The notes under the pieces: generated by a model
The model's database searches: none
What the model was told of the DNA's origin: nothing
Seen by the model: only the letters and a program-made list of their open reading frames with translations
Program-made: the position numbers and the translations under genes
In this document: piece by piece, positions 2,025-25,274 of the stretch
Layout of the letters: every line of letters starts with the position of its first letter
How positions within the stretch are numbered: the first letter of the stretch is position 1
Source of the DNA: Candidatus Acidiferrales bacterium
Lineage (GTDB): Bacteria > Acidobacteriota > Terriglobia > Acidiferrales > UBA7541
Length of the DNA: 64,000 bases
Assembly (NCBI GenBank): GCA_963748365.1
Contig: CAVVJG010000032.1
Span: forward strand, 333,717-397,716
Direction of reading: 5' to 3'

Positions 2025-2195
2025 AGCACCAGTCCGCTCACCCTTTGAGCGAATTCGCCGGGGTCTGCCTTACAACTTAAATGAACAAGCGCAGAAGATT
2101 TTGTAAACGTGGCGATGCGAGCCAGCCACGAGGAATGGTAATCCATTGTCGAGTCTCGTAACCTTTGAAGTAACTATTAGGCGTTACTAGCGCGG

Positions 2196-2213
2196 CTAGC
2201 TGCCTTTTTTGAG
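2196..2213. repeat. 18-bp direct repeat, copy of the mglA 3' end (left boundary of TA cassette)
   Basis: CTAGCTGCCTTTTTTGAG at 2196-2213 is identical to 2943-2960 (mglA last codons LKKGS*). Confidence 0.85.
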
Positions 2214-2318
2214 TCCCTCGGTATCCAAGCTCTGGATGGGAATTTCCTGCCTCCCGAGAACAAATCTAGCTTATTTGACTCCCTTGCAACCACCGACGAT
2301 GCCAGCTAGCATACCTCC

Positions 2319-2504
2319 ATGACCAAGGCAAAAGAATACGTCGAGAAACCGGCTCCCATCATCGAAGAAGAGGATGAAGCCACCCTCGCCGCAATCGACG
2401 AGGGTATTCGAGACGCCAAGGCTGGTCGTGCCGTAAGCATCGAAAGAGTGCGGAAGCTTCTGCCAAAGTGGATTACCGCCTCCTCTTCACGCAAAGAGCC
2501 TTAG
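2319..2504 (+). CDS. Putative type II antitoxin (61 aa)
   Basis: Small acidic protein with AAIDEGIRDAKAGRAVSIERVRK, typical of partners of RelE/ParE toxins; overlaps the toxin start. Confidence 0.8.
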   Translation: MTKAKEYVEKPAPIIEEEDEATLAAIDEGIRDAKAGRAVSIERVRKLLPKWITASSSRKEP

Positions 2505-2758
2505 ACGATCTAGCCGAAATTATCGGCCATATCGCCGAAGACGACGGTAAATCCGCTGCTCGTTTCGGCAGTACCTTGCTCGACCACATCGAACTGCTTA
2601 TTCGCTTTCCCCGCATGGGAGGAACCATCCGCGAAAGATCGAAGGTGGGTAAACTCTCCCATAGTCCGATTCTGGTGTACTACCAAATCCGCGAAGAGCG
2701 GCATATCGTTGAAATTCTCCACCTCCGTCATGCGTCTCGCAAGACGGCAAGATTCTGA
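2468..2758 (+). CDS. RelE/ParE family toxin
   Basis: YRLLFTQRALDDLAEI...RFPRMG...ILVYYQI...VEILHLRH pattern of RelE/ParE; 96 aa; GTG start. Confidence 0.88.
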   Translation: MDYRLLFTQRALDDLAEIIGHIAEDDGKSAARFGSTLLDHIELLIRFPRMGGTIRERSKVGKLSHSPILVYYQIREERHIVEILHLRHASRKTARF

Positions 2759-2942
2759 TATCACTGAAACACAACTTTCCAAATACCTGCAATTATTTGG
2801 AGATCAATGCATACAATCAAGCCAATGTCGGCAGTGAGTAGAATTGAAGCACCTTCGCGGTCACCGAGCCCCAAGGTTACCGGTGAAGCGTGTTCATCTT
2901 ACTACCGCGCCAGATACTACGATGCTCTGGGAATGAACTTAC

Positions 2943-9487: not shown

Positions 9488-11644
9488 TCATTTGGATGCG
9501 TTGATCAAGGTGCCGGTCAGCACGGTTATCGACGCCTTAGGCAGGATTACCTTTTGTCCCAGATTCAATCGCAGGTGCTGCGTCTTTGCTGGTCCGGCTG
9601 GGTCTGCGTGGCTCGTGGCCCCCGATGGATGCCATACATATTCCGCCGCGCCAAACGTCACTTGCTTCACTTCGCCGGAAAAGTGCGCTGGCGTATCATT
9701 TGCTTTCAGCGCAAAGCTGAGCTTCACTTCGTGGTCGTTGCTGGGATCCTTATTAATCATCAGCAACGACCACTTTCCGTCTGGTCGCTTCACGCCATAG
9801 GCAGTGATCAACGTGTGCCCCGCATCATCTTTCACGCCCGCCAGCGCCGGATATAGCTCGTGTTTGCCCGCTCCATGCTTCACCCACTCCAGGTTCAGCA
9901 ACTGACTGGCGAAATATTGCGCGGTGTGTTGTCTGATTTCCAGCTTTTCGTTGGCCACAAAATTTCCATACGTGCTCCATGCGTGGCATCCCGGGCGCAG
10001 CGTTTCCGGCTGGATCGGCGAATGATAATAAGCGGCGCCCGGCCCCCCATACGTCAAGAATGCTCCAACACTATCCGCCAGCCACAAACCCGCGAACAAA
10101 TCTTGCATTGGATCGGTCAATTCCCAGGAAACATTGCTCTCCGTGTTTATCAGCGGAACCTCCGCCGGTACACCATCCTCGCGCCAGGCCTTCAATATGC
10201 GTTCCACCATTTCTGGCTCGCGGTATAGATCAGACCAGCCGATTTCGCACGGTGTGAACGGATAATGTTCGAACGAAACGAACGTCAGATCCTTCATTCT
10301 TCCGTGAGCTTTCAAGTAATCCAGAAAACGTGCCAGCCAGGATGTGCGTCCCTGCGCATCCGGCCACGCTTTAATGTCTTCGTTCGCCCCCGTAAACACT
10401 GGCCCACCCAATTTTAATTTTGCATCAACGCGATGCAGCGCCGTGGCCCACTGCAAATACAACGCCGCGTAATCTTCCGGCAACATGAATTGCCCGTCCG
10501 GCTCCTCCCCCATCTCGATATAAGCGACCGGATAACCGCGCTTTTCGATGTAGGCAATCTCCGCCGCGCTGTCTTCCGGCGTTGCGTACAACATGGCCAC
10601 GGGAATCATGGCGGGTAAATTGTTGGTGATACCACTGGTGAAAAAGAGATCGAACCCAGTTTGGATTCGCGAGGGAATAATATCTTCGGCGGTGTGCCAG
10701 GAATCATTCGACGAAACCTGGATGTTGGTTTGCGCCTGTCCTGGCGTGTGTTTAATCAGGTCGACAAACTCGCCATGCGAATTGTAATTGCCCGCGTAAA
10801 TCTCAGAGATTGCGTAACCCACACAATTGCGCGGATCTTGCCGGCCGTGCGTGTCGCAGGTGTTCGAAGACTGCGTCATCCACACGCGCAGGAACCGCGT
10901 CGCAACGGGATGTTCTACCAGGCGCCACACTTCGGCGTTACCTTTGGCGGCACGCACCTCTCCTAGCGGAAACTTGATCCATTCGCCGGAAGCCGGCTTG
11001 CTGATGGCATCTTCTTTTCCCGCCCAGTATTCCACCACATATTCCGTTGCATAGGGGTTGGCCCAACGGATCTGAATGGCGCTAATGTCCTGCGGCGTCG
11101 AAAAATCAATCACCACCCATTGTGGATGCGCGCTGTCCGGCTCTTCCGTAAACTTCGCGGTGAGATAGGGATTGCTCTTCCAATAGCTTGCCGCATCGCC
11201 ATCCACTATCCGCGAATATTCGTTCTGCCCGGCGTCGCTGCGCGTAGATCCACGATGCGGTAATTTGTAACCGAAAGACTGCCGCAGCATTTCCCCCGGT
11301 TCGGCACTTCCCACAAAATAGCCACTCTTATTTTCAACGTCGCTCCATTTTCCATTGGGATTCCAGTGCCACGCATCAATCGTCAATTCGGTGTTTTGGC
11401 GATACGTGATGGGACCCCAGCCGGCACTCAGCGATTCCTTCAGGATCGGCGCGCTGTAGACCGTGTCGAATTCTTTCGCAGACAAGATATCTATGGAACT
11501 TCCCATCGCCTGATCTGGGTCAAACATAACGGCGCGCGCCGGTGAAATATCAACGCGTACCGTTTGCCCGATCCCGGGTCTCGCAAGCATCGTCGCGCAC
11601 GCCAGAAGCAATAGTCTAGACAAGCAAGGGAAGTGGTCTCTCAT
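9488..11644 (-). CDS. Secreted glycoside hydrolase-like protein with inserted discoidin (F5/8 type C) domain
   Basis: Signal peptide; discoidin-like segment (IVDGDAASYWKS...QWVVIDF...IQIRWANPYATEY); clan GH-A-like YIEMGEEPD and FVSFEHYPF; C-terminal beta-sandwich. Confidence 0.65.
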   Translation of the reverse strand: MRDHFPCLSRLLLLACATMLARPGIGQTVRVDISPARAVMFDPDQAMGSSIDILSAKEFDTVYSAPILKESLSAGWGPITYRQNTELTIDAWHWNPNGKWSDVENKSGYFVGSAEPGEMLRQSFGYKLPHRGSTRSDAGQNEYSRIVDGDAASYWKSNPYLTAKFTEEPDSAHPQWVVIDFSTPQDISAIQIRWANPYATEYVVEYWAGKEDAISKPASGEWIKFPLGEVRAAKGNAEVWRLVEHPVATRFLRVWMTQSSNTCDTHGRQDPRNCVGYAISEIYAGNYNSHGEFVDLIKHTPGQAQTNIQVSSNDSWHTAEDIIPSRIQTGFDLFFTSGITNNLPAMIPVAMLYATPEDSAAEIAYIEKRGYPVAYIEMGEEPDGQFMLPEDYAALYLQWATALHRVDAKLKLGGPVFTGANEDIKAWPDAQGRTSWLARFLDYLKAHGRMKDLTFVSFEHYPFTPCEIGWSDLYREPEMVERILKAWREDGVPAEVPLINTESNVSWELTDPMQDLFAGLWLADSVGAFLTYGGPGAAYYHSPIQPETLRPGCHAWSTYGNFVANEKLEIRQHTAQYFASQLLNLEWVKHGAGKHELYPALAGVKDDAGHTLITAYGVKRPDGKWSLLMINKDPSNDHEVKLSFALKANDTPAHFSGEVKQVTFGAAEYVWHPSGATSHADPAGPAKTQHLRLNLGQKVILPKASITVLTGTLINASK

Positions 11645-11827
11645 GGCAGTCTCCAGAAAACGTCAGTATTATATCGATTGAATAGCGCCAGTAAACCATT
11701 AGTCTGTGCGCCCCTGTCTGAGCACACCCCAGCTATATGGGCTGGCCTCCATCGCATTCGCTGTTCCCCGGCGCAATTTCCAGCTAACATTTCTTCGGAT
11801 GTCTGCTACTTAATTCGGAGAGATTCC

Positions 11828-12244
11828 ATGTCGACCTTTGGACTGATCGAATACAACGATGCCAGCACGGAAGTGAAAGCGATCTATGACGACATTCTCA
11901 CCACGCGGAAAACGGACTACATTAATAATTTTTGGAAAGCCATCGCGCACGATCCGGCGTTGCTGCGGAGCACTTGGGAACGCCTTAAAGCCATCATGGG
12001 TCCGGGCGCGCTCGATCCGCTTACCAAAGAACTCCTCTACATCGCCGTCAGTGTCACAAACAATTGCCACTACTGCATCGCCTCTCACACCGCCTCGGCA
12101 TTTGGTAAGGGCATGACCCCGGAAATGTTTAAGGAGCTTCAAGCCGTGGTCGGAATGGCCAACGCCACCAACAAATTGGTTACCGGTTATCAAGTCGCCA
12201 TCGACGAACGCTTTCAGCCGCCGCTTGACCGGGGGAAAAAGTAA
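11828..12244 (+). CDS. Carboxymuconolactone decarboxylase / AhpD-like protein
   Basis: LDPLTKELLYIAVSVTNNCHYCIASH (CxxC), AhpD-core pattern; GGAGAG RBS. Confidence 0.88.
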   Translation: MSTFGLIEYNDASTEVKAIYDDILTTRKTDYINNFWKAIAHDPALLRSTWERLKAIMGPGALDPLTKELLYIAVSVTNNCHYCIASHTASAFGKGMTPEMFKELQAVVGMANATNKLVTGYQVAIDERFQPPLDRGKK

Positions 12245-12411
12245 CCACGCACGCGTCAATTCGTGGCGTTCTCCACAACCTGTTTCCATCGTAGTACGCA
12301 AGTACTATAGGTCTGCCTGTCCGGCAATCCGAATATAAAAAGGTACAGATCTGGGGCCTCCCTGCGCGTGGCGGGGCTGACTTCCTAACCTTTTTTTATT
12401 GCGAGTGTCCC

Positions 12412-14613
12412 ATGGCACCAAGCGTGAAAGACGTCGAGAACTCGACACCGGCCAGCACTTCTACTCTTCCATCCGCTCAAGCCGCCAATCCTGCACAAGC
12501 CGCAACGCGGCCGCAACCTGTTCCGCTGGAAGTTCCTGTCAGCGTGAATGGCGCGCGCACCATTGAGGGCTCCGACAAGCGCGAACCGTTTTCCGAATCC
12601 ACCAAAACTGTTTTGGTATTTGCGAACGGCGCAGTGATTCGCCTGGCCTCCAACGTGGCCCCGGGCCAACTTCTTTTCGTCACGAACGACAAGAGCAAGA
12701 AAGAAGTCGTTTGCCAGGTCGTGAAATCCAAGAATTATCGCACCGTGACCGGCTACGTCGAATTGGAGTTCACGGAGCCCGCTCCCGGATTTTGGGGTGT
12801 GCGCATTCCCACAGAATCTGCGCCCGCTCACGCCCAGCCTAAAGTTCCCGTGGCACAGCGGCCCGCGGCTCCTCCCGCAGCCGTTTCCCCCGCGATTGGT
12901 TTGCCGAAAGCAGCAGCACCGGCGCCGCCCGCTCCCGTAATTGCAAATTCGAATGTTCCTCTCGCACCACCCCCAAAACCGGTCATCGCCCCGCCACCGG
13001 TCGTCCCCGCCGCGACGCCAAAACCGGAAGCTGCAAAGCCTGTCGTGCCTCACGCAACTGCGCCAGTGAAAACCGAATCTCTACCCTCTCAACGTGCTGC
13101 ACAGGTTTCCGCCCTGGTTGACCCTGAGCCCGTGGCAGCACCTCCATCGCCGGCGAAGCAGGGAGTTGCATCACCCGCATCACAAAAGTCCAGCGACGCC
13201 TCAACGGAAGAACTTCGCCAACAAGCCGCACGTTTGCAGGAACAACTCAGCTCGCTCTTGTTTCGTGAATCCGCTTCAGAAAAGGCTACGGTACCGCCGC
13301 CAGCACTTGCCCCTCCGGCTGTTGCGACTACACAGGTTCCCCAAGTTCCGAAGGAAATGCTTCGTGGGGCAGACGCCCTCCAACAAGCGGTAGCGGAATT
13401 GGAAGCTAGCTCGAAGCCCGAAGCAAAGCCCGGGCATAAGCCTGAGCCAAAGATCGAGCCGATCAAAGTTTCCTCGATACCTACGCCTGCTGCAGAAATC
13501 AAGGCGCCTTCCATGATTTCCAAATCGTCTTCCATCTCACTTCCTGCCGAAGAAGTGAAGATTCCGTCATGGCTGGCACCGCTTGCGCGCGAGACGGAGA
13601 CCGTCAAGGAAGTCGCTTCCACTTCGCCTGCAAGTTTGCCTTCAACCGAGGAAGTTTCTTCCTACGGGAACTCGGAGGAACTTACCGTCAGCATCGCCAC
13701 TGACCCCACGCAGAAAGCACCGACAGTCGTATTTGGTGGACAATTGTTAGGTGGCTCAGGATCGACCGATGCACAAGTTGCCCCTTCCGGTTCGAAAAAA
13801 GGATTGGTCTTCGGTCTGGTTGCCGCGAGCTTACTCGCTGCTGCTGGCGTGGCGTGGTACGGATTGCAGCCGGGGAATTTCCTAGCGTCGAAGCTGGCTT
13901 CGCCTGTCGCGGTACAAAACAACATGGCAGCTTCAAGCGAGCCCCCCTTGGGGAATGGCTCACCCGCAATCACTCCAGCGACCACGGCAAATCCGACTTC
14001 ACCCGTTACGTCTCCAGCTGCCGCCAACAGCCGCCCCGCGACAACGATTCCGGCGGCCAGTACGCCGCCTTCAACGAACCGCAACTCGAATCCTGCCACA
14101 GTCCCAGAGGTAACTAAGGTGGCGAACGCTGCTGAGCGCAACGTGCCTGAGGTGGAAGCTCCCAAGAAGCCGGTTCTCGGTGATGTGCATTTGGCCACAC
14201 CAACCGTCAATCGCAAGGCAAATTCCATTGGAACCGAGGCTGCCCCTTCCATTGACGACGCAGAAGCGAGCAATGCCGGAGACCCACTGACTGGCCTTGC
14301 TGCAAACCACAGCAAAGTGCCTTCCGCTCCTGTGCCGGTTGGAGGCGATGTGAAAACCGCAAAGCTTCTGAAATCCGTGTCTCCCGTTTATCCGCCCACC
14401 GCCAGATCGCAGCGAATTTCCGGCGACGTGAAATTGGACGCATTAATCGATGAGAGCGGCAATGTCTCTGCCACCCAGATCATTTCTGGTCCGACGCTGC
14501 TCCATCAAGCAGCTATAACCGCCGTGAAACAATGGAAGTATCAACCTGCTCAGTTGAATGGCAGTGCTACATCCATGCACCTCACCGTCACCGTTCAATT
14601 TCGTTTGCAGTAA
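12412..14613 (+). CDS. Membrane protein: PilZ-like N-domain, Pro/Ala-rich linker, TM helix, TonB C-terminal domain
   Basis: C-terminus PVYPPTARSQRISGDVKLDALIDESGNV...AAITAVKQWKYQPA is a TonB_C domain; TM GLVFGLVAASLLAAAGVAWYGL near 13800; N-terminal beta-domain resembles acidobacterial PilZ-like folds. Confidence 0.75.
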   Translation: MAPSVKDVENSTPASTSTLPSAQAANPAQAATRPQPVPLEVPVSVNGARTIEGSDKREPFSESTKTVLVFANGAVIRLASNVAPGQLLFVTNDKSKKEVVCQVVKSKNYRTVTGYVELEFTEPAPGFWGVRIPTESAPAHAQPKVPVAQRPAAPPAAVSPAIGLPKAAAPAPPAPVIANSNVPLAPPPKPVIAPPPVVPAATPKPEAAKPVVPHATAPVKTESLPSQRAAQVSALVDPEPVAAPPSPAKQGVASPASQKSSDASTEELRQQAARLQEQLSSLLFRESASEKATVPPPALAPPAVATTQVPQVPKEMLRGADALQQAVAELEASSKPEAKPGHKPEPKIEPIKVSSIPTPAAEIKAPSMISKSSSISLPAEEVKIPSWLAPLARETETVKEVASTSPASLPSTEEVSSYGNSEELTVSIATDPTQKAPTVVFGGQLLGGSGSTDAQVAPSGSKKGLVFGLVAASLLAAAGVAWYGLQPGNFLASKLASPVAVQNNMAASSEPPLGNGSPAITPATTANPTSPVTSPAAANSRPATTIPAASTPPSTNRNSNPATVPEVTKVANAAERNVPEVEAPKKPVLGDVHLATPTVNRKANSIGTEAAPSIDDAEASNAGDPLTGLAANHSKVPSAPVPVGGDVKTAKLLKSVSPVYPPTARSQRISGDVKLDALIDESGNVSATQIISGPTLLHQAAITAVKQWKYQPAQLNGSATSMHLTVTVQFRLQ

Positions 14614-14722
14614 CGGCGAAGTCGCAACTTGAAAATCCCATGATTGGAAGTGCGAGTGCCCTGGCGTGTACCCGCGCGCAGCCCCACGCCAACCGGCCAT
14701 TCACTGTTCTGTGAAAATTGAC

Positions 14723-16243
14723 TTAGTGTGTAGTGGAGTATCCGCCATGCGGCGCCAACGCCGGATGCCCCACGGCAGTTTCTTCGGCAAATTCCCCCGA
14801 AGCTTGCGGATTGGCGTGCAAGATCACGATCCATGACAGGTGCGGGAATGGCAGAAAGCGATCAATGGGCCGAATCAGGGGAATCAGGAAATTCAATGAT
14901 TTGATTTGCCAGAATCCAAACGTTTCTTTCTTTAACAGCCGCCCGTTCAGCCACCAACCGGGGGCGCCAATGCGGTTGAACTTCAGAACCTTGTCCACGG
15001 TAAATCCGGCATCCTGGCAGGCCTTCACCAATTGCTGTTCCGTGTAGCGGCGGTAGTGGCCAAGCACTTTGTCGAGCGTTCCGTATAATTGGGGGCCATT
15101 CGGTACCAGAATGATGGCGCGGCCGTTGGTGTCCAGCCGTTTGCGAATGTTACGCAGCGCCTGCACATCATTTTCGAGATGCTCCACCACATTCAGGCAG
15201 ACCACCGTATCGAATCGTTCTGCCGGGTACGTTTCCTCGGCGCTCGCGTCCGTGTAGTGAACCTGCAGGTATGGCCGCGTCTGCTTCAGGGTTTTCAGCC
15301 GGTCCAGATATTGCGGATTAATATCGCTGGCGTGGTATTCCGTGCGCGGCACCAGATTCGCCGTTAGATTGCCGATCCCCGCGCCAATTTCCAACACGCG
15401 GTCGCCAACGTAAGGCCGAATCGTGTCCGCCATCCATTTGGTGAATTTCGGCGCCCGATTCAGCCGAGCAAGAATTTCGCTGCCATACGCATCTGCCACG
15501 TAGATTTTGTCAGAGATGCCGTATTTCACCAACGCTCCGAGAGCGCGAACGCCGTCTTTCCAGGTGATCTTTTTGCCTTCCGCATACGTGCGCCCGGAAT
15601 AGCGAATGGGGATTTCAAATATTCGCGCCTTGCGCTTCGCCAGCTTGATGGTGATTTCCGGTTCGATACCGAAACGATTGCTCTCCCACGGAATGTTCTT
15701 GAATATGTCTGTCCGCACCATCTTGTAGCATGTCTCAATGTCGGAAAGGTTCAGGTCCGTTACAAAATTGGTCAGCAGTGTGATCAACCGGTTGCCCAGG
15801 CTGTGCCGGAAGAACAACACGCGCCGGAAATCGCTGGACATGAATCGCGAACCAAACACCGCGTCCGCATCTTCTTCCAGGAACAGTGGAATCATCTTGG
15901 CAATGTCCGAAGGGTGATATTCCAGGTCCGCGTCGTGTATGACCACCAGATCGGTGTCCACGTGTTGAAGTGCAGTGCGTATGGAGGCGCCTTTACCCTG
16001 GTTGCGCTCGTGCTCCAGAAATATCCATTCAAAATGTGGAAGATTCAGTCGTTGCACGGAATCGTGAAACTGGCTCAGCACTTCCGACGTTCCGTCCGTG
16101 GACGCGTCGTTCACCACGATCACGCGGATGCGCCCCAGCAGCGGCGACTCCGCCAACACCCCCAGCCTCTTCAAGCTGGTCTCCACCAGATACTGTTCGT
16201 TGTACACCGGAACTAGAATCGCGAGACTGATTTTGCCTTCCAT
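14723..16243 (-). CDS. Fusion of family 2 glycosyltransferase and SAM-dependent methyltransferase
   Basis: ILVPVYNE, VVNDASTDGT, HDADLEY (GT2/DPM-like); VLEIGAGIGN and FDTVVCLNVVEH (class I MTase). Confidence 0.9.
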   Translation of the reverse strand: MEGKISLAILVPVYNEQYLVETSLKRLGVLAESPLLGRIRVIVVNDASTDGTSEVLSQFHDSVQRLNLPHFEWIFLEHERNQGKGASIRTALQHVDTDLVVIHDADLEYHPSDIAKMIPLFLEEDADAVFGSRFMSSDFRRVLFFRHSLGNRLITLLTNFVTDLNLSDIETCYKMVRTDIFKNIPWESNRFGIEPEITIKLAKRKARIFEIPIRYSGRTYAEGKKITWKDGVRALGALVKYGISDKIYVADAYGSEILARLNRAPKFTKWMADTIRPYVGDRVLEIGAGIGNLTANLVPRTEYHASDINPQYLDRLKTLKQTRPYLQVHYTDASAEETYPAERFDTVVCLNVVEHLENDVQALRNIRKRLDTNGRAIILVPNGPQLYGTLDKVLGHYRRYTEQQLVKACQDAGFTVDKVLKFNRIGAPGWWLNGRLLKKETFGFWQIKSLNFLIPLIRPIDRFLPFPHLSWIVILHANPQASGEFAEETAVGHPALAPHGGYSTTH

Positions 16244-16479
16244 GGCTACCGATCCATTCTGACTCAGACTCCATTGTCGCAATTGTCTTAAGAGCGCTAG
16301 TTTTGCGGCTAAATTCAAGTCTATCAGATTTACTCTCTGTTATTTAAAGGCTGTTGTGTTGAATAGTGAATCAGTTTCATATCGCGAGACTAGCAACCTG
16401 CGAATCTGCCTCGAGAGAAGGTGTAGACTCTCTTGAGATTTGGAACTACTCGGTAGGTTAGCCAATGCCGCCAAGAAGC

Positions 16480-17031
16480 ATGCGAATTCTGCCATCGAGA
16501 GCCCGAGTTCGGATTCGAGAGCCGAGACTCTCAGATCGGAAAGAACTAATCGCCCTGGTTTGCGGAAGCAGAAAACTCCATCATCCCTGGGTCTACCCGC
16601 CCGACGATACGGGCGCCTGGGCGTCGTACATTCGGAATTTGCAATCAAGCCGGAATGAAGGCTACCTCGTTTGCCTGATCTCCTCAGGAGAAATCGCTGG
16701 AGTGATAAATATTTCTGAGATTGTGCGGGGCTTATTTCAGAGCGGATATCTGGGTTTTTATGCTAATGCGACTCACGCAGGGCTGGGATACATGAAGGAA
16801 GGTCTTTCGTTGGTTTTACGGTACGCATTCTCCCGGCTTGCATTGCACAGGTTAGAGGCGAACATCCAGCCGAAAAATGCAAAGTCTATCGGTCTCGTGC
16901 AAAGTCGTGGGTTTCATTGTGAAGGTCTTTCACCCCGGTATCTTAAAGTCGGCGGAAAATGGCGTGATCACGAACGATGGGCAATAACCGTTGAGGAATA
17001 CTCACCACAGGGAAAAAAGGGCTGGCTCTAA
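16480..17031 (+). CDS. GNAT family N-acetyltransferase (RimJ/RimL-like)
   Basis: GYLGFYANATHAGLGYMKEGL, LHRLEANIQPKN, EGLSPRYLKVGGKWRDHERWAI. Confidence 0.92.
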   Translation: MRILPSRARVRIREPRLSDRKELIALVCGSRKLHHPWVYPPDDTGAWASYIRNLQSSRNEGYLVCLISSGEIAGVINISEIVRGLFQSGYLGFYANATHAGLGYMKEGLSLVLRYAFSRLALHRLEANIQPKNAKSIGLVQSRGFHCEGLSPRYLKVGGKWRDHERWAITVEEYSPQGKKGWL

Positions 17032-17099
17032 GGAGCCAGCCCCAGGTGTTAGATACCGCGACGACTGTTTCGTTAGAAGGTACGGCGGAAACCAAACTC
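16990..17099. repeat. About 110-bp direct repeat, copy A (GNAT 3' end, terminator, remnant of receptor 3' end)
   Basis: Manual alignment with 19920-20028: 99 of 110 positions identical, 1 gap. Confidence 0.92.
17019..17042. terminator. Stem-loop at a convergent gene junction (likely terminator)
   Basis: GGCTGGCTC-TAAG-GAGCCAGCC 9-bp stem, followed on the minus strand by a U-run (complement of AAAAAA at 17013-17018). Confidence 0.65.
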
Positions 17100-17132
17100 C
17101 GAACGGGTCTCCAATGCAGACTTGCCGCCGTC

Positions 17133-17705
17133 CTACTGACCTTCGCAGCTCACCCTGTTGTTCCAATCCACAAAAGCGCCGTTGGGGTTGTCACGCCAGG
17201 CCCACACGTGCAGCTCGAAGAAGGCGGGTATGCCATACCGGTTCGGGCTATTCACGAACTGGAAGGCTTGGCCCTCAAGCATTGGAGGCGCGCCATTGTG
17301 GGCATCAAGCCAGGTGGCTGAGTCCACGATGTATTCGACGCCGACCAGCCGCCGCCTATCGCCCACTGGCTCGTAGATCAGCGCTTCCGGGTGCGCCGCA
17401 TCAATCTCTCCGTCAACAACCAGAGGACCATTGATGTAGTGGATGCCCATGGCGCCATGGTCCGGACCACTGACGCAGCCAAATGCAGGGTTGTATCCGG
17501 CTGGACCGGCGTTGTTAACGTCGATGAATTGCTGTGTGGCGTCGCGAACGATCTGTACGAGCTTGGCCGGTGCCGAATGGTCATGGTCATGAGCGGCTTG
17601 CCCAGCAGCAAGAAGCGGCGCAAGCATAGCCAGGCTGCCCAGCAAGGACCGACGCAAAGTGTTCCTGGTTAAAGAATCAATGAGAGTCGTGCATCGCGGT
17701 GTCAT
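17133..17705 (-). CDS. Secreted conserved hypothetical protein with His-rich N-terminus
   Basis: Signal peptide, then AHDHDHS; motifs GAMGIHY, PEALIYEP, LVGVEY, ELHVWAWRDNPNGAF; AAAGGGG RBS before ATG 17705. Confidence 0.75.
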   Translation of the reverse strand: MTPRCTTLIDSLTRNTLRRSLLGSLAMLAPLLAAGQAAHDHDHSAPAKLVQIVRDATQQFIDVNNAGPAGYNPAFGCVSGPDHGAMGIHYINGPLVVDGEIDAAHPEALIYEPVGDRRRLVGVEYIVDSATWLDAHNGAPPMLEGQAFQFVNSPNRYGIPAFFELHVWAWRDNPNGAFVDWNNRVSCEGQ

Positions 17706-17902
17706 AGTTTCCCCTTTCAAAATTGTTGCGGCTCCCGCCGTTGAACGACCGCATCCTGCTGTATACCTGGGTCGATCGGCAATGGCGAACGTCTGAAGAT
17801 TTTCTTAAGCCATATGAATTCGTAAGCCGCTGGAATTATTTGATTTGTCGAGAAGCACACGAACGGATGTAGAATTGCGGCTGTCTGGTTGAGCGTGGAT
17901 TG

Positions 17903-19828
17903 ATGGCTTCTGAGCTCAAAATCGTCGGCCCGATCCGGTTTGGCGAAGATTTTGAGCTGGATTTGTGCTCCTATGAGTTGCGCCGTGCAGGGCGGGTCCT
18001 CAGACTGGAGCGCATTCCCGCGGAATTGCTTGTCCTCTTGATAGAAGAGAGACGACAGTTAGTCAGTCGCGACCGAATTATCGAACGCATCTGGGGCAAG
18101 GACGTCTTCCTCGATACTGACAACGGCATCAACGCCGCTATCCACAAGATTCGCCAGGTGCTGAAGGACGATCCCGAGCAGCCGCAATTCGTGCAGACAA
18201 TCACCGGAAGGGGATACCGATTCATTGCACAAGTGGAGGAGGCCGGAGTTCAGCGCTATATCGTCCCCTCACCGCCCCAGCAATCCATCCCGCCTCCCCC
18301 AGCACCCACTCCGACGAAGCGTAACCGGACTCGCCTGGCAGTGGCCCTAGCCCTAATAGGCTTGGTGATTGCCGGGTCCGCCATCTGGCTCGCGCAATGG
18401 TTTTGGCATCGGAACAGTGGATATCCCCCGATTCGCTCCATCGCCGTACTACCATTCGAGAATCTCTCCGGCGATTCGTCGCAAAATTATCTTGTGGATG
18501 GCATCACCGAGGAGTTGATAACTAATCTTGCTAAGGTAAGCGCTCTCCGGGTGACTTCCAGAACTTCAGTGATGCGTTACAAAGCTACGAAAAAGAGTCT
18601 ACCCGAGATTGCGCGTGAACTGAACGTGGACGGGATTGTCGAAGGATCGGTCACTCGGTCGGGGCAACGAGTACGAGTCACAGCCCAGCTACTGCGCGCA
18701 CCTACAGATCAGCATCTCTGGGCCGATACATATGAACGCGACCTCGGTGATGTACTCAAGTTACAGAGTGAGGTGGCGCGGGCGATCGCGCAGCAAGTCC
18801 GCGTAGAGGTGACCCCGCAGCAGCAGGCTCGCTTGAGCGCTGCCCGTCCAGTGAACCCAGAAGCTTACGAAGCTTATTTGAAAGGGCGTTACTATCTTTC
18901 GAACCAGTTCACTACGGCTCAACCACTGAACACAGCGAGGAGCTACTTCGAAGAAGCCATCCGGAAGGACCCCGGCTTTGCGCTGGCTTACACAGGGCTT
19001 GCCAATTCCTATCTTTACTTGGGTTTTTTCCGGCAGTTGCCGGCAGAGAGCGCCCATCAATCCGCCAAGGCAGCCCTGCGCAAAGCTCTGGAACTGGATC
19101 AGACTATGGGCGAAGCCCACGATGCGATGGCCGTCCTGAGCTGGCGGTACGAGTGGGACTGGGAGGCAGCCGAGCAAGAGTTCAACCAGGCGATTGCCCT
19201 GGCGCCAAATTACAGCTGCGCCCATGAGGACTACGCAATCTATCTCGCGTTTAGAGGTCGGCGCGCCGAGGCCTTGGCTGAGGTCGCTAAGAGCAACGAG
19301 ATAGATCCTGGCCCTGGTTCCGCCATGACTGAGGCAGCCACCTTCTATCAACTACGCGACTACGCGGCTATGCGCGAAGCTGCACGGCGGGGTGTAACCT
19401 CGAATCCGAGTGAGTGGACTGAACACTACAATCTTGGGATCGGGTACGAAGGCACGGGCAAACGGCTGGAAGCTATCTCGGAGTATCAGAACGCGGTTGA
19501 GATGTCGAATGGCGATCAGGATGCGATTGCGTCGCTCGCGCACGCCTACGCACTGATCGGCAGAACAGCCGAAGCCAAGAAGATTCTTCGTGACTTGGAA
19601 CAAAAACTCCTGAAGCAAGAATCAAACACTGCCAACGTTTCGCCCTATATCCTCGCAACCATATATGCGGGACTTGGGGAGAAGGAGCGAGCATTTGAGT
19701 TGTTGGAAAGAGCTTACCCAGAGAGGTCCCTGGAAATGAACTGGCACCTCAAAGCCGACGTGCGCATTGACAATCTCCGCTCCGAACCTCGCTTCAATGA
19801 CCTGTTGCGCAGCGCGCACCTAAACTGA
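17903..19828 (+). CDS. Winged-helix (OmpR/CadC-type) DNA-binding, TM, TolB-like, TPR regulator
   Basis: RFGEDFELD...IHKIRQVLKDDPEQPQFVQTITGRGYRF; TM helix; SIAVLPFENLSGD...DGITEELITNL; TPR repeats. Confidence 0.9.
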   Translation: MASELKIVGPIRFGEDFELDLCSYELRRAGRVLRLERIPAELLVLLIEERRQLVSRDRIIERIWGKDVFLDTDNGINAAIHKIRQVLKDDPEQPQFVQTITGRGYRFIAQVEEAGVQRYIVPSPPQQSIPPPPAPTPTKRNRTRLAVALALIGLVIAGSAIWLAQWFWHRNSGYPPIRSIAVLPFENLSGDSSQNYLVDGITEELITNLAKVSALRVTSRTSVMRYKATKKSLPEIARELNVDGIVEGSVTRSGQRVRVTAQLLRAPTDQHLWADTYERDLGDVLKLQSEVARAIAQQVRVEVTPQQQARLSAARPVNPEAYEAYLKGRYYLSNQFTTAQPLNTARSYFEEAIRKDPGFALAYTGLANSYLYLGFFRQLPAESAHQSAKAALRKALELDQTMGEAHDAMAVLSWRYEWDWEAAEQEFNQAIALAPNYSCAHEDYAIYLAFRGRRAEALAEVAKSNEIDPGPGSAMTEAATFYQLRDYAAMREAARRGVTSNPSEWTEHYNLGIGYEGTGKRLEAISEYQNAVEMSNGDQDAIASLAHAYALIGRTAEAKKILRDLEQKLLKQESNTANVSPYILATIYAGLGEKERAFELLERAYPERSLEMNWHLKADVRIDNLRSEPRFNDLLRSAHLN

Positions 19829-19919
19829 TTGCGTGTAGGATCTTGCTATTGTCTATTGACAAGATTCCGATGCGGATCGCTCGTTTACAAGCGGTGGCGA
19901 TCCCCCAAGACATTCTTGC

Positions 19920-20028
19920 GTTGAAGAGTACTCACAACAGAAAAGAAGGGCTGGCTTTAAGGAGCCAGCCCCAGGTGTTAGATACCGCGACGATTGTTTC
20001 GTTAGAAAGTGAGGCGGAAACCAAACTC
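19920..20028. repeat. About 110-bp direct repeat, copy B (frameshifted GNAT end remnant, terminator, intact receptor 3' end)
   Basis: Matches 16990-17099; contains GGGCTGGCT-TTAAGG-AGCCAGCCC hairpin and the receptor stop at 20002. Confidence 0.92.
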
Positions 20029-23000
20029 GCTCCACAGGGAACGAGGAGTGGTGGTGCTGGTGGGGTTGATGAATCCAACCGGGTGGCCGAACGTCTCAGC
20101 ACTGGCGATGCTGTTCCCGTAATTTGACCCGTAGTTGGCGCGGTTGGTCAGGTTAAAGGCCTGCGCGATGAGCTGCAGGTTAACGCGTTCGCCGATTTTG
20201 AAGTTTTTCGCCACGCGGAGATCGAGTTGGAAGAACGGATCACCTCGGAGCGAATCATATTTTGCGATGGTGCAATCCGCGGCCACGCCGTTGATGCCGT
20301 AGAAGCAGTTTTGTGCACCAAGGTCATCGCCAGCAAACGCGAAATAGTCGGTCGGGTTGCTCTTCGGCACCACAACGGGATAGATGTACGTGCCCCCACC
20401 GAGGTTCAGCGTGTTGGCAGAGTTGACAACGGCGTAGGGCCGCGAGGAGCCGAACTGGAGAATGGGAGCGATCTGGAAGCCCCACGGCAGTTCCCAGAGG
20501 CCGCTTATGGTCACGTGATGACGCTCGTCGTTGGGTGTCGGTCCCCAATTGTATTTGGCAAAGGGATCAGTCGAGAGGGCCGGATAGTTGCGGAAGCCTG
20601 AAGCGAGGGAGCTGTAACCGTTTGCCCACGCCAGAGTGTAATTCGCATTGAGCGTGAAGTGATGCATCATGCGCTGGCGATAGCTGAAGTTGATGCCATC
20701 GTAGTGAGAGCGGCCCGTCGACTGGTCATCACGGACACTGGCGAATTGAGTTCCGGTAGAACCGTCGAGAGGACGATAGCAACATTGGTCACCAATGGGC
20801 TGAGTTGGGTCCGGCAGCTTTTGGTCGATGTTGATGGTCTTATTTTCGTGCAGGCTCAAGACGTGGGTGTATTCCGCTTCAATGACAGAGTTGGAGTTAA
20901 GAGCCCAGCTATAGCCGATGTTGAACTCTTCCGTTACCGGGTTGCGGTAATTAGGATCGATCAGGCGGCCAACGCTGCGTTCCGCCAACGTAGTGGACGG
21001 TGGTGGAATGGTGGGAAGTGGGCTGATTCCATACTGCCACTGGCCGAGATTCAAACCGGTGCCAGGGACGGGGTCGGTGGGGCTGGAAAGGCTGAGCACG
21101 GTCTGGAAGATGGTGGGGTTGGCCATCTGTTCCATGAATAAAGGAATGTTCTGGAAGACGTTGCCGTAATAGAGACCGAATCCGCCTCGTAGAATATGGC
21201 GACCTTGACCATTGATGTCGTAAGCGAAACCGACGCGTGGGCTAAAGTCGTATTTATCGTCTTGGGGGATTTTGCTCACGTAGGGGTTGCTGACCGGATC
21301 GTTCGCAGCAACAAGGACCTGATACGTGCGGCTGTCCTTCACATCGGAGCCACCGATCATGTTGAAGTCTTTATCCCAGCGGATGCCGAGATTCAAGGTC
21401 AGGCGCCGGTTCACCCTCCAGTCGTCCTGGAAATAGAGGCCGAGCTGTTTGGTGGCGACAAGGAAATACGGATCGCCGTTGGCAATGGCCATACCGTTAA
21501 CGGCGCCAGGTGTAGCGAATTGCTGAGGAAAGTAGGTTGGCCCGCACTTGGTGTCCGTGTCATCGACAGTTGCTAGAATGCAGCTTGGATCTTTCGTGAA
21601 ATCGAGTTCAAGAGTGGAGCTGAACTCGAAGAAGCCGCCTTCGACGGGGTTCCAGATGTAGTCCACGCCAGCTTTGAGGGTGTGATTGCCGATGGTTTTG
21701 GAAATGTCGTCCTTGAACTGCCACTTCTTCTGGAATGACTGCTGCGGAACGTTGGTGTTGGTGCCAAAAGACGCGCTCGGGAATACGACGAGTGGCGCGC
21801 TGATGTCACTGGCAATCAAGTTGTTCCAATATTGATAGCCAAATGTGAACTGATTGACCATGTTGTTCGCAAGAATCGAGCTGAGAGTAAAATTGGCCAA
21901 CTGGAGATGATTCTTGGTGAAGTTGCCATTGGTGAGGTCGCCAGTGCCATCAGACTGGTCGTTGTCGCTATTGTTGACCTGGGAACTGTAGCTGACGTAG
22001 GCGGTGTTGTCCCTGTTGATGGTCCAGTCCATCCGGCCGTTGTAGCGGGTTTCGTAAAAGGGACGAGGAATGACAAGAGCAGGCTGAGCAGCTAGTCCGG
22101 CCTGCTGTGCGAGGACGAGCTCATTGTAGGATTTGTCGGTCTCTTGTAACCCCTGACTTTCGCGCTCACGTTCAAGGGCGAAAAAGCCGAACAGTTTGTG
22201 TTTGACAATCGGACCGCCAATGGACCCACCGAAGAACTGACGGCTGTAGTCCGGATTGGAGGTCGTGTAACCGCCGGAGCTATCCGGGTCCTTCTGATCC
22301 GTGTTCAACGCAGATGCGCGGAAATAGCTGAACAGGGAGCCGTGATAGGCATTAGTGCCTTGCTTGGTGATCATGTTGATGGCAGCGCCTTCGGAACGGC
22401 CGTTTTCCGCCGAGAAACGCTGCGTGCTGATCTGAAATTCCTGGACCGCTTCCAGAGGAAGCTGCATAACGGGTCCGCCGACGGTGTTGTCTTTGTTGTC
22501 CACGCCATTGACGGTCACGTTTACGTTGCGGCCGCCCTGGCCGTTGACGGAGAGAATCGCGTAGCGGTTCTTGGTGGGATCGTAGGAATCCGCCGCCTTT
22601 ACGCCGGGGGCAAGATACGCAAGGTTGGCCACATCGCGGCCCAACAAGGGAAGCTGCTCAACTTCGCTGGGAGTAATGTTCTGGCTTACGCTAGTTTTTG
22701 TCTGCTCGATGAGGGGAACTTCGGAAACGACCTCGATGGTTTCTGAAGCGGCGCCAACCTGAAGCACGGCGTTGGCGGTAACGACTTGGCCGACCAAAAT
22801 CTCAAGGCTTTGGGTGGTCGTGCTGAATCCGGTCTTGGTGAAGGTGACCAGATACGCGCCGCTAGGGAGTAACTCGAAGCGGTAATTGCCTTCGTCGTTG
22901 GTAGTTGTGCTGCGCGTGAACTCCGTGCCCTTATGTTTTACCACCACCTGAGTGCCAGCGACTGCTGCTTGCGACTTGTCCAGAACCGTACCCTGGATCG

Positions 23001-23091
23001 TGGAGGTGGCCGTGACTTGAGCGAAAAGGTCGGCACTTCCGAAACAACTTAGGAAGAGCGAGACAAGCACGATATAAGTAAGCTTTTTCAT
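20002..23091 (-). CDS. Oar-like TonB-dependent receptor (about 1030 aa)
   Basis: Signal peptide MKKLTYIV, CarboxypepD_reg-like domain, LPLLGRDVANLAYLAPGV, VDGVDN-like VNGVDN, EAVQEFQISTQRFSAENGRS, terminal FGFRLTF beta-signal. Confidence 0.92.
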   Translation of the reverse strand: MKKLTYIVLVSLFLSCFGSADLFAQVTATSTIQGTVLDKSQAAVAGTQVVVKHKGTEFTRSTTTNDEGNYRFELLPSGAYLVTFTKTGFSTTTQSLEILVGQVVTANAVLQVGAASETIEVVSEVPLIEQTKTSVSQNITPSEVEQLPLLGRDVANLAYLAPGVKAADSYDPTKNRYAILSVNGQGGRNVNVTVNGVDNKDNTVGGPVMQLPLEAVQEFQISTQRFSAENGRSEGAAINMITKQGTNAYHGSLFSYFRASALNTDQKDPDSSGGYTTSNPDYSRQFFGGSIGGPIVKHKLFGFFALERERESQGLQETDKSYNELVLAQQAGLAAQPALVIPRPFYETRYNGRMDWTINRDNTAYVSYSSQVNNSDNDQSDGTGDLTNGNFTKNHLQLANFTLSSILANNMVNQFTFGYQYWNNLIASDISAPLVVFPSASFGTNTNVPQQSFQKKWQFKDDISKTIGNHTLKAGVDYIWNPVEGGFFEFSSTLELDFTKDPSCILATVDDTDTKCGPTYFPQQFATPGAVNGMAIANGDPYFLVATKQLGLYFQDDWRVNRRLTLNLGIRWDKDFNMIGGSDVKDSRTYQVLVAANDPVSNPYVSKIPQDDKYDFSPRVGFAYDINGQGRHILRGGFGLYYGNVFQNIPLFMEQMANPTIFQTVLSLSSPTDPVPGTGLNLGQWQYGISPLPTIPPPSTTLAERSVGRLIDPNYRNPVTEEFNIGYSWALNSNSVIEAEYTHVLSLHENKTINIDQKLPDPTQPIGDQCCYRPLDGSTGTQFASVRDDQSTGRSHYDGINFSYRQRMMHHFTLNANYTLAWANGYSSLASGFRNYPALSTDPFAKYNWGPTPNDERHHVTISGLWELPWGFQIAPILQFGSSRPYAVVNSANTLNLGGGTYIYPVVVPKSNPTDYFAFAGDDLGAQNCFYGINGVAADCTIAKYDSLRGDPFFQLDLRVAKNFKIGERVNLQLIAQAFNLTNRANYGSNYGNSIASAETFGHPVGFINPTSTTTPRSLWSEFGFRLTF

Positions 23092-23365
23092 TTTTCCGTT
23101 ATCTCCGTAAAGCAGGGAAGTAATTTGGACCACGAGCGGTTACTTCCGTCTGCGAGTTGGACAAATACAAGTATCCCGAGCGAAAGGACTGCGCTGAGCG
23201 GCCAGAGAGGGACAAAATCTTTGGAAACTAGCCCCGCCTCTGCAGACACAACGAAAGCCCACGTTCGAGAACACTTCCGAACCATTCACCACTAGGCCGA
23301 GCCAAATTAGTTAACGCTGATGCAACCGAGGGGAGGTTGGATTCCCCTTATGGGAACCGCAAATA

Positions 23366-23381
23366 TGCAATTCATGTGCCA
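23366..23381 (-). promoter_or_regulatory. Sigma54 (-24/-12) promoter motif upstream of the Oar-like receptor
   Basis: Minus strand reads TGGCAC-ATGAA-TTGCA, with GG and GC separated by exactly 10 nt; about 275 bp upstream of the ATG. Confidence 0.7.
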
Positions 23382-24002
23382 GGAATCGCATACTTGTAAC
23401 GTATTCATAATAAGTAAGTTAGTTCTAAATGGAACCAATTGTCACAAACTTGTAACAGAAAATGGAAGCCAAATTGGCTGGACCTATGAAAATGTGTAGA
23501 TAGTAGACTTGTAGGACTGACGCCAAGGTCAATCCAATTCAATCCCGGAGGAACACTTGCGATCAATCGCTACTCCTGCTCGATGCAAGTGCATATGATC
23601 AAGCAGTAGCTCGATCGCCTGTGGATGTTTGCGGGCAATAACAACAGCCGTGGAAAAAAATCCTTGGCAAAGTCTGCAGAGCTCAAAAATACTTTTCGGT
23701 TAACGCATCAACCAAGAATCAAGACACTGCGTTTTTCCCCCACCCTGCGACTGGTTGTACAGTGCATGCCACACGTTTCCTGTTCCGTACCATCTCCAGC
23801 ACTCTTTGTGGCGTAGCTACCTTGCGGTTGGCCATCTCCCTTCGTATACTGGCGACCCGGCCAAATGGTAGCTCCGGAGGGTGGGTAGCCCGCCGATTTT
23901 TGCCTCCCTTGGCCTTTACTAGATTGCCTGCACGTCTCTCGCGGGCCGAACCATGCTGCGCAGCCACGGCTCCACGGCTGCACCAGTAAAGGAGATTTTT
24001 GC

Positions 24003-25274
24003 ATGCCGCAAGCGCCTGTACCGGAAGAAATGAATGTCTACCAGAACGCCGAAGCGCGTTTTGAAATGGCTGCGAACAAGCTCGGCCTGGAGCAGGGCAT
24101 TTACCGTTATCTGAAATATCCCGACAAAGAAATCACGCTCTACATTCCGGTGGGCATGGACAACGGACAGCTTGAAGTTTTCACTGGTTATCGTGTTTTG
24201 CATTCCACGGTTCGCGGACCCGGCAAGGGTGGCATTCGCTTCGCACCGGATGTCAGCGTTGATGAAGTGAGAGCACTGGCGGCGTGGATGACTTGGAAGT
24301 GTGCGGTCGTCGACATACCCTTCGGCGGAGCCAAGGGCGGTATCATTTGCGATCCGCGCAAAATGTCACGCGGCGAACTGGAACGCCTCACACGCCGTTA
24401 CACTGCTGAGCTTTCCGACTGGCTCGGGCCAGAGCGCGACGTGCCGGCCCCGGACGTTGGCACCAATGAACAGACTATGGCATGGGTGATGGACACCTAT
24501 TCCATGCATGCCCGTCAGGCAACCACCGCCGTCGTTACCGGCAAGCCCATTGAATTGGGCGGGTCGCGCGGACGCCGCGAAGCCACCGGGCGCGGTGTGA
24601 TGATCTGCGTGGACAAAGCCCTGACCAAATTTGGGATGAAAAAAGAAACCACTCGCGTTGTGGTTCAGGGCTTCGGGAATGTCGGCTCACTCGCCGCGGA
24701 ACTGATGCATAAGAGCGGTTACAAAATCGTTGGGCTCGCGGATATCGGTGGTGGCCTCTATAACGACAACGGTTTCGACGTGCCCAAAATTATCGAGTGG
24801 GTGTACACTCAGAAGAAGCCTCTCCAGGAATTTCCGGGTGGCGGAACGAAAATGAGCGCTCGCGACGTCCTCTTTCAGCCCTGTGACGTGCTCATTCCCG
24901 CGGCCATCGAAAATCAAATCACCGAGCAGAACGCTCATCAAGTCCAGGCCAAAATACTTTGTGAAGGTGCAAACGGCCCCACCACCTGGCAAGCCGACGC
25001 CATCATCGATTCCAAGGGCATCTTCACCGTGCCAGATATTCTTGGCAACGCCGGTGGAGTTACCGTCAGTTATTTCGAGTGGGTGCAGGATCGCCAGGGC
25101 TTTTTCTGGCGCGAGAGTGAAGTGAACGAACGCCTCTACGACGTCATGGATCGTGCTTTTGACGAAGTAGTTCGGTACGCGGAAACTCATCGTGTCAACA
25201 ATCGCATCGCGGCCTATATGTTGGCCATCGACCGGGTTGCCACGGCTCTCAAACTTCGCGGCATCTATGCGTGA
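24003..25274 (+). CDS. gdhA: Glu/Leu/Phe/Val dehydrogenase (glutamate dehydrogenase)
   Basis: [63 protein letters not shown]; AAAGGAG RBS. Confidence 0.95.

Follow-up and report, generated by a model that had tools for sequence, protein, structure and literature searches.

The locus analysed here raises the question of how a short segment spanning the ends of two convergent genes came to be present twice, on either side of two further genes, in a place where no enzyme for moving DNA is encoded. It lies in a stretch of 64,000 nucleotides from a Candidatus Acidiferrales bacterium, a soil acidobacterium (hereafter the window, to which all positions refer). The duplication had been described earlier from the letters and open reading frames, with no database searches (the sequence-only reading), and the identities then given to the four genes – a GNAT acetyltransferase, a secreted protein, a wHTH-TPR regulator and an Oar-like receptor – agree with ours. 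The features are listed in Table 1.

Table 1. Features of the island, its flanks and the two repeat copies, in window coordinates.
Feature	Positions	Size	Strand	Remarks
GT2-methyltransferase gene	14723-16318		-	left flank of island
Lineage-specific island	~16356-23775	7.4 kb		contains GNAT, cargo, receptor
GNAT gene (RimJ/RimL-like, Acetyltransf_3)	16465-17031		+	Pfam and NCBIfam matches
Repeat copy A	16990-17099	110 nt		intact GNAT end, hairpin, receptor 3'UTR, relic of receptor last codons
Hairpin of copy A	17018-17043		-	followed by UUUUUU on minus strand; from terminator scan
Receptor-end relic in copy A	17073-17099		-	reads EFGFRRTF, stop
Cargo	17100-19919	2.82 kb		two divergent genes with a shared promoter region of their own
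Secreted protein gene	17133-17720		-	twin-arginine-like signal; likely start ATG at 17705
Membrane-anchored winged-helix regulator gene (Trans_reg_C-TM-TPR)	17900-19828		+	periplasmic TPR part, CadC/HilA-like layout
Repeat copy B	19920-20028	109 nt		GNAT-end relic, hairpin, receptor 3'UTR, intact receptor last codons
Frameshifted GNAT-end relic in copy B	19920 to ~19960
Hairpin of copy B	19947-19972		-	receptor gene's own intrinsic terminator; from terminator scan
Intact receptor end in copy B	20002-20028		-	reads EFGFRLTF, stop
Oar-like TonB-dependent receptor gene (CarboxypepD_reg + OMP_b-brl_4)	20002-23133		-	own upstream region to ~23500
gdhA	24003-25274		+	right flank of island

Two copies of a gene junction

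Copies A and B are approximately 90% identical, with a single 1-nt deletion in B (BLAST against the whole genome, E-value 7e-36); both have sharp edges, and they share an identical stretch of at most 36 nt (17029-17064). The repeat is thus as real as the sequence-only reading had it, and its gene-end translations also hold: the plus strand of copy A reads VEEYSPQGKKGWL and a stop, that of copy B reads a frameshifted VEEYSQQKRRAGFKE..., and the minus-strand readings are those in Table 1. When the 6.0-Mb assembly is searched with the 110-nt unit, A and B are the only two matches, so that a dispersed repeat or MITE is ruled out; chance and assembly artefact are ruled out by the E-value together with the same layout in three independent assemblies. 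The hairpin core, searched as an exact pattern in metagenome and genome collections, gave no matches. The genome contains 109 local direct-repeat pairs, many of them neighbouring paralogues or tRNA-end duplications of ordinary islands, and a few are unexplained intergenic pairs.

The length of 110 given originally is correct for the window but not for the original event. Two metagenome contigs from close relatives (L024 and L025) have repeats of 123–125 nt, with copy A extending ~14–16 nt deeper into the receptor coding sequence; the window's copy A has therefore since lost ~14 nt at its right edge, and the original duplication spanned ~125 nt. This longer receptor relic fits a once-exact duplication that is now decaying. 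Five states are common to all A copies of the three genomes and differ from all B copies, and the duplication is thus older than the 3–4% divergence of these genomes. Polarised with the two contigs, changes fall on both copies and are faster in the non-functional halves, and the copies have lost bases independently.

About 16 nt of copy B, outside the receptor's own 3' flank, reads VEEYS and resembles the C-terminus of the GNAT family, for which comparison with homologues gives the consensus WAIT[VLA]E[ED]W; as the GNAT-derived part reaches only this far past the receptor flank, its origin rests on a short match. In this relic, two of three substitutions before the frameshift are synonymous, which is not significant. 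The VEEYS segment in B and the decaying receptor end in A both bear out the earlier view that an ancestral GNAT/receptor junction was duplicated around the cargo.

The hairpin is the terminator of the receptor gene

The sequence-only reading placed the hairpin in the GNAT/receptor junction as such. The stem GGGCTGGCTC...GAGCCAGCCC and its T-run, however, also follow the stop of receptor homologues elsewhere (L064, L065 and L066, the last with homology reaching window position 19932), and the hairpin is therefore the receptor's own conserved terminator. Its fold has a predicted free energy of -23.1 kcal/mol in copy A (z -4.55) and -19.9 kcal/mol in copy B. The GNAT gene reads its last ~9 codons and its TAA stop from the antisense strand of this terminator, and the stop falls within the hairpin loop. 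Both functional gene ends and the terminator survive, as had been noted, and the hairpin of copy A, now downstream of the secreted-protein gene, is likely the intrinsic terminator of that gene.

Receptor homologues share 82–85% amino-acid identity over the full length and 81–88% over the C-terminal part, and their context elsewhere is conserved (abhydrolase, receptor, ECF sigma, FecR). One homologue has only an unannotated co-directional gene downstream. Among 120 genomes of the genus, there is no GNAT homologue at E<1e-20.

A self-contained two-gene module

The cargo consists of two genes only, neither of them a recombinase, transposase or integrase, as was originally recognised. Its borders lie 33 and 91 nt from the stops of these genes, with nothing between. 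The secreted-protein gene is single-copy in the genome and belongs to a large Terriglobales family, with no match in Pfam, NCBIfam or PDB sequences; paralogues of the regulator in the genome are at most 40% identical to it. The Trans_reg_C regulator probably controls the divergent secreted-protein gene.

The regulator/secreted-protein pair is found in many unrelated contexts, and the module is widespread and self-contained. Its nearest homologues are 67–82% identical, and none of those found elsewhere has similar flanking repeats. Nucleotide homology to the modules in L070 and L073 covers the secreted-protein gene and the wHTH-coding part of the regulator, whose sensor part is swapped; in L073, it also spans the region between the two genes. 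The cargo does not stand out as foreign in base composition. Its ends carry no inverted or direct repeats above the shuffled expectation (best end-to-end alignment 14 against a shuffle mean of 12.9). A possible GGAACG microhomology is present at the border of copy A and cargo in L025, and no close donor sequence was found.

An accessory island and its site

GNAT and receptor had both been regarded as host genes. Both nevertheless lie in the 7.4-kb island, and seven syntenic relatives in the genus (G021, G106, G017, G135, G128, G127 and G061) lack the entire four-gene block; in these, the genes that flank it here are adjacent. Nucleotide homology to G106 and G021 ends at 16347–16355 and restarts at 23776–23787; the site contains only ~40 nt in G106 and a different insert of ~960 bp in G021. 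The accessory island is young and is put together like a mosaic from three units, all of which have homologues in other contexts. None of the four genes is a recombinase, and there is no tRNA or known RNA family in the island. Besides the island locus, window positions 2024–2941 are another replacement hotspot in relatives.

Carriers of the junction

The only carriers of the junction that we found are the two metagenome contigs, which are 96–97% identical to the window; both have the cargo and both copies, so that all three assemblies agree in layout and all three are filled. More distant relatives lack the island altogether, and GNAT and receptor homologues elsewhere have other neighbours. 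The check proposed in the sequence-only reading was a relative with an empty site, the GNAT gene running directly into the receptor at a single junction copy. None of the relatives, metagenome contigs and genomes searched has an uninterrupted junction; the search covered 120 genomes of the genus, both by GNAT and by receptor C-terminus, and the contexts of GNAT homologues at 71–94% identity and of receptor homologues at 81–88% identity over the C-terminal part. The insertion is thus deduced by parsimony rather than seen as a pair of empty and filled sites. Relatives that always carry the cargo with both copies were named in the same reading as evidence against an inserted cassette, and as far as the data go this is the pattern in both contigs; with every carrier filled, the three assemblies give no hint of a cassette that is mobile at present or of a 2.9-kb circle.

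A parallel case in the same gene family is present in G008, in which a duplication of ~250 bp surrounds a kinase gene and the flanking copies have diverged by 12–18%.

Origin of the duplication

We propose, with a probability of roughly 0.6, that the locus records one insertion with long target duplication, made without a recombinase, and is now a fixed and decaying scar nested in the young accessory island. From the sequences compared, the most parsimonious history would be that a single ancestral GNAT/receptor junction was duplicated around the inserted two-gene cargo. The repeat, the island, the source of the terminator, both copies in close relatives and the modular make-up of the cargo are seen directly in the sequences; the order of events and the mode of recombination we infer as follows. 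The receptor gene would have come with its own intrinsic terminator, and a GNAT gene from outside the genus would have joined it tail to tail, losing its native end, and its reading frame now finishes in the terminator antisense. The regulator and its divergent partner would then have entered the junction by host recombination, with no element-encoded enzyme; candidates are illegitimate or homology-assisted events, such as staggered-break repair, template switching or the entry of a circularised fragment by a single crossover, in which ~125 nt of the junction would have been copied to either side of the module. Thereafter, selection would have preserved copy A at its GNAT end, copy B at its receptor end and the hairpin in either copy, where it would now likely terminate the secreted-protein gene and the receptor gene, respectively. 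The useless halves would have been left to decay, by the 1-nt frameshift in B and by an L-to-R change and the 14-nt deletion in A. We know of no demonstrated mechanism for long target duplication.

A different origin, possible but in our judgement unlikely, is patchwork by horizontal exchange, in which one copy and its neighbouring DNA came in from a related strain with the same receptor unit, through homologous anchoring in the receptor or GNAT gene and one illegitimate join. The 10% divergence would then date the split of donor and recipient and not decay in situ. The mosaic make-up of the island, the position of its locus among the replacement hotspots in relatives and the similarly diverged copies in G008 are all consistent with exchange, as are the synonymous changes in the GNAT relic, although these do not reach significance. 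Such a donor must, however, already have had the cargo beside a GNAT-relic junction, which merely shifts the original duplication elsewhere, and ordinary decay suffices to account for changes that fall on both copies and faster in their non-functional halves.

Very unlikely, to our mind, is a site-specific mobile cassette, with the 110-nt unit or the hairpin serving as attachment site for a recombinase encoded elsewhere and the cargo excisable as a 2.9-kb circle: the geometry resembles attL/attR restoring both gene ends, the 36-nt identical core persists and classical tRNA-end duplications are present elsewhere in the genome, but the unit occurs only twice there and not at all in the pattern scans, and the hairpin was inherited with the receptor gene as its terminator. 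The island also has no integrase, tRNA or known RNA, cargo homologues have no comparable flanks, the copies have diverged and lost bases independently, and the cargo is present in all carriers. We find it scarcely credible that two full GNAT/receptor units once flanked the module and that most of the first receptor and of the second GNAT were later deleted. Deletions do happen at the borders, as the 14-nt loss in copy A indicates, yet this course takes no fewer than three events whose end points would have to be tidy by coincidence, no other relic of a second GNAT or receptor is present in the island or genome, and nothing lies between the cargo borders and the nearby stops of the cargo genes.

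Comparison with known systems

The geometry of the locus matches that of a class, insertion with long target duplication, whose unique flanking repeats are 46–423 bp and which has no mobility genes (Nobusato et al. 2000, Gene; Furuta et al. 2010, Nucleic Acids Res, PMC2853133). In this class, the unit is shorter than 20 kb and the repeats correspond to one target sequence, which often overlaps the 3' end of a gene. The published examples were demonstrated by pairs of empty and filled genomes; their cargo is restriction-modification genes, whose enzymes the authors suspect of breaking the DNA (PMC2853133). The locus described here is similar in having direct repeats longer than 30 bp in the window and in both contigs, in that the repeat is found nowhere else in the genome, and in its 2.82-kb insert with no transposase, integrase or other mobile element. 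It differs in that no related genome was found with a single uninterrupted target aligning to both repeats, in its cargo of a regulator and a secreted protein rather than a restriction-modification unit, and in the greater age of its copies, which are 10% diverged.

A single crossover with a circle gives the layout L-R-X-R-Rt, which is also the layout here, but a circle holding both junction and cargo would have to form first. The work on such Campbell-type insertion-duplication and on homology-facilitated illegitimate recombination that is cited in PMC2884548 (de Vries & Wackernagel 2002; Prudhomme et al. 2002) describes how host RecA-type recombination, alone or together with one illegitimate join, adds foreign DNA with no element-encoded enzyme, in experiments with naturally competent species.

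The island as a whole resembles flexible genomic islets in hotspots between conserved core genes, being a 7.4-kb block without mobility genes whose site, a divergent intergenic region, is empty in G106 and differently occupied in G021; the nested duplication of a convergent junction is an extra layer, which such islets do not require. As in tyrosine-integrase islands (attL/attR), the direct repeats rebuild an interrupted gene end, but no integrase is present here, the repeat is not a recurrent att site but a unique terminator junction, and the copies decay independently. A transposon, IS or MITE was rejected by the missing terminal repeats, the single-copy secreted-protein gene and the distant regulator paralogues. 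An integron cassette (attC) does not fit either: the palindrome is the receptor's terminator and occurs only twice, and the cargo has two genes and its own divergent promoter region.

Implications

The locus is best read as an old and fixed, though real, scar left by a known kind of insertion that uses no integrase, and not as an active mobile cassette, and the scar by itself opens no new mechanism and makes no old question testable. Annotators should not treat the GNAT tail, or either of the two relic gene ends, as an independent feature. A side benefit is likely that the duplicated terminator now serves the incoming gene.

We also raise, as an unlikely but broader idea, that Terriglobales may recurrently shuffle self-contained regulator-plus-target modules, as well as other accessory genes one at a time, into terminator junctions and the 3' ends of genes, with no recombinase and with long target duplications; convergent terminators might, for example, suffer staggered breaks that Ku/LigD or template switching then repairs. 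The second case in G008 and the presence of Ku in this genome are hints in this direction. If true, the published restriction-modification cases would be one instance of a general, cargo-independent gene gain.

Under the insertion that we favour, the island is a three-layer record of how an accessory region was built with no mobile-element enzyme – a receptor unit, a GNAT gene set into the antisense of its terminator, and then a module with a 125-nt duplication – and it would extend the published class of long target duplications to cargo other than restriction genes and to the Acidobacteriota.

A probable duplicated junction flanking two genes

The two copies of the repeat align over 110 and 109 nt with about 90% identity and one 1-nt gap, and the similarity drops off sharply at both edges. 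Matches are found at two places only in the 6.0-Mb assembly (E values of 8e-52 and 7e-36), which rules out chance or a dispersed element as the nature of the repeat. Copy A encodes VEEYSPQGKKGWL and a stop codon on the plus strand and EFGFRRTF and a stop codon on the minus strand; copy B encodes EFGFRLTF and a stop codon on the minus strand and the frameshifted VEEYSQQKRRAGFKE on the plus strand. The sequence-only reading described a GNAT/receptor junction duplicated around a cargo lacking integrase or transposase. Its observations—the repeat and its coordinates, the translations, the four genes, and the want of a recombinase among the cargo genes—are confirmed, and the genome-wide search that it proposed yields nothing beyond A and B; its interpretation is partly supported.

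Features of the repeat locus (window positions) and other local direct-repeat pairs in the same assembly (G000)
Feature	Position	Strand	Basis or remark
RimJ-like GNAT	16465-17031	+	gene annotation, family match
Repeat copy A	16990-17099
195-aa protein, twin-arginine-like signal, without family match	17133-17720	-	annotation and family search
Trans_reg_C, transmembrane, TPR regulator	17900-19828	+	annotation and family search
Repeat copy B	19920-20028
Oar-like TonB-dependent receptor	20002-23133	-	annotation and family search
G000 repeat pair	C25:37918-37957 / 43271-43310		overlaps a gene's stop codon
G000 repeat pair	C20:534726-534812 / 538236-538322
G000 repeat pair	C16:257680-257774 / 259195-259289

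Two long metagenome contigs, L024 and L025, encode a GNAT homologue of 94% identity; over 20.5 kb they align collinearly with the window (96-97% nucleotide identity), and each contains all four genes as well as copies A and B. Five states in a six-way alignment of the copies are common to all A and different from all B, so the duplication is older than the split of the three genomes. Copy A in L024 and L025 reaches about 14-16 nt deeper into the receptor coding sequence, and self-comparison gives repeats of 123-125 nt; the duplication thus measured about 125 nt originally, not the 110 bp first ascribed to it, the window's copy A having since lost 14 nt. Change is fastest in the non-functional halves of the copies, as expected of relics.

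Origin of the repeat sequence

The nearest receptor homologues (82-85% identity over the full length, 81-88% in the C-terminal part) lie in a conserved neighbourhood of abhydrolase, receptor, ECF sigma factor and FecR genes; homologue P0123 is followed only by an unannotated co-directional gene. Three of the contigs with homologues (L064, L065 and L066) have the same stem (GGGCTGGCTC, loop, GAGCCAGCCC) and T-run right behind the receptor stop codon, and L066 can be aligned with the window at nucleotide level as far as 19932. This identifies the repeat's hairpin as the intrinsic terminator of the receptor gene itself; on the minus strand the two copies fold with -23.1 and -19.9 kcal/mol, each followed by a U-run.

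The last GNAT codons (PQGKKGWL) and stop are antisense to this terminator, the stop codon falling in its loop (window 16990-17031). GNAT homologues lose nucleotide similarity at 16985-16987, and comparison with the family C-terminus, WAIT[VLA]E[ED]W, indicates that the repeat opens with ~16 nt of genuine GNAT sequence (VEEYS). This stretch, also found in copy B, is short and is the main evidence that the GNAT/receptor junction predates the cargo, for which the case appears good but not certain.

A lineage-specific block

A glycosyltransferase-methyltransferase gene (14723-16318) has orthologues in many genus members (75-92% identity), and in seven of these (G021, G106, G017, G135, G128, G127 and G061) it directly adjoins gdhA (window 24003), with synteny for many kilobases in both directions. 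Nucleotide homology to G106 and G021 stops at 16347-16355 and restarts at 23776-23787. The 7.4-kb GNAT-cargo-receptor block (16356-23775) is thus specific to this species-level lineage, and the GNAT and receptor genes, taken initially for host genes, belong to it together with the cargo. G106 has about 40 nt at this site and G021 a different insert of ~960 bp at exactly the same point (L039, 8363-9325), which appears to hold broken reading frames only. A search of 120 genus genomes (E<1e-20) recovered no member of this GNAT subfamily; receptor homologues occur in three genus genomes, in other contexts (70-72% over the C-terminal 399 aa, 72-76% over ~900 aa).

A second replacement hotspot lies at 2024-2941, the segment with a toxin-antitoxin pair downstream of mglA: G021, G106 and G017 have 1.0-1.8 kb of unrelated sequence in its place, with homology lost at 2020-2023 and regained at 2940-2943.

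The cargo module

The secreted protein is single-copy in its genome. Its family comprises thousands of uncharacterised proteins of Terriglobales, and elsewhere its gene is usually divergently paired with a Trans_reg_C regulator. Contigs L070 and L073 have nucleotide homology to the window over the secreted-protein gene and the winged-helix domain, spanning the intergenic region in L073 only, with a regulator sensor part of another type (NB-ARC-TPR). The usual pairing, and homology that holds despite a swapped sensor part, indicate that the cargo is a self-contained regulator-target module; neighbours of such modules vary between genomes. At its termini the cargo shows neither inverted nor direct repeats beyond what shuffled sequence gives, its base composition is unremarkable, and no tRNA or known RNA lies near the locus.

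A regulator paralogue of 40% identity outside the window (G000 C32:536406-538845) immediately precedes another Oar-like receptor gene in the same orientation, so regulator-receptor adjacency may be functional, not accidental.

Similar geometries elsewhere

Genome G008 (contig L021) presents a second case of this geometry with the same secreted-protein family: the last ~250 bp of a homologue are duplicated (10637-10914 and 14599-14849) around a 3.7-kb insert encoding a Ser/Thr kinase-NB-ARC-TPR protein (10851-14066). Identity between the repeats is 82-88% in two gap-free blocks and 76% across all 278 nt of the BLAST alignment; the arrangement is uninterrupted in G022 and G012. The entire regulator, secreted-protein and kinase region is enclosed by 486-nt direct repeats (6201-6685 and 17169-17654; 94% identical, 11 kb apart). 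On L066, 107-nt direct repeats (11141-11246 and 13066-13172; 78% identical) bracket the ECF sigma/FecR pair beside the receptor homologue; they represent a duplicated promoter region or else a further insertion with a long duplication. The pairs of G000 (see table) are 40-95 nt long and 91-95% identical, around 1.4-5.3 kb of genes; others found in this assembly are copies of tRNA 3' ends at ordinary islands (e.g. C32:468230, C32:17890).

Proposed history

The most economical account has four steps. A receptor unit with its own terminator would have been joined tail-to-tail by a GNAT gene, within that terminator; the regulator-target module would then have entered the junction with duplication of ~125 nt, and the duplicate halves decayed differentially. 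After insertion the secreted-protein and receptor genes, both on the minus strand, would each own one terminator copy, a division that probably accounts for there being only 2 differences in the central 60 nt against 9 in the coding tails.

Another reading, which we regard as rather unlikely, is that one copy was imported from a related strain. That the insert is a site-specific cassette is highly improbable, since the repeat is unique in the genome, originates as a terminator and decays independently in its copies, and no polymorphism is seen, L024 and L025 having the same arrangement as the window. Least probable is duplication of the whole GNAT/receptor unit with later deletions, which requires more events and of which the own-genome search found no further relics.

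The favoured history, insertion into the junction, has the geometry of the published 'insertion with long target duplication', in which unique repeats of 46-423 bp flank gene units without mobility genes (PMC2853133). A staggered double-strand break may have been filled in and a fragment captured (Ku is encoded in this genome); template switching during replication, single-crossover entry of a circularised fragment, and homology-facilitated illegitimate recombination (PMC2884548 gives context) are further candidate routes. We do not choose among the four, as the closest homologues of the cargo reach no more than 67-82% identity. Published cases have so far been restriction-modification genes, with the mechanism unproven (PMC2853133), whereas here a regulator and a secreted protein are involved. 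The C-terminal tail and stop of the GNAT gene illustrate, on a small scale, how a non-coding structure can come to supply the end of a reading frame.
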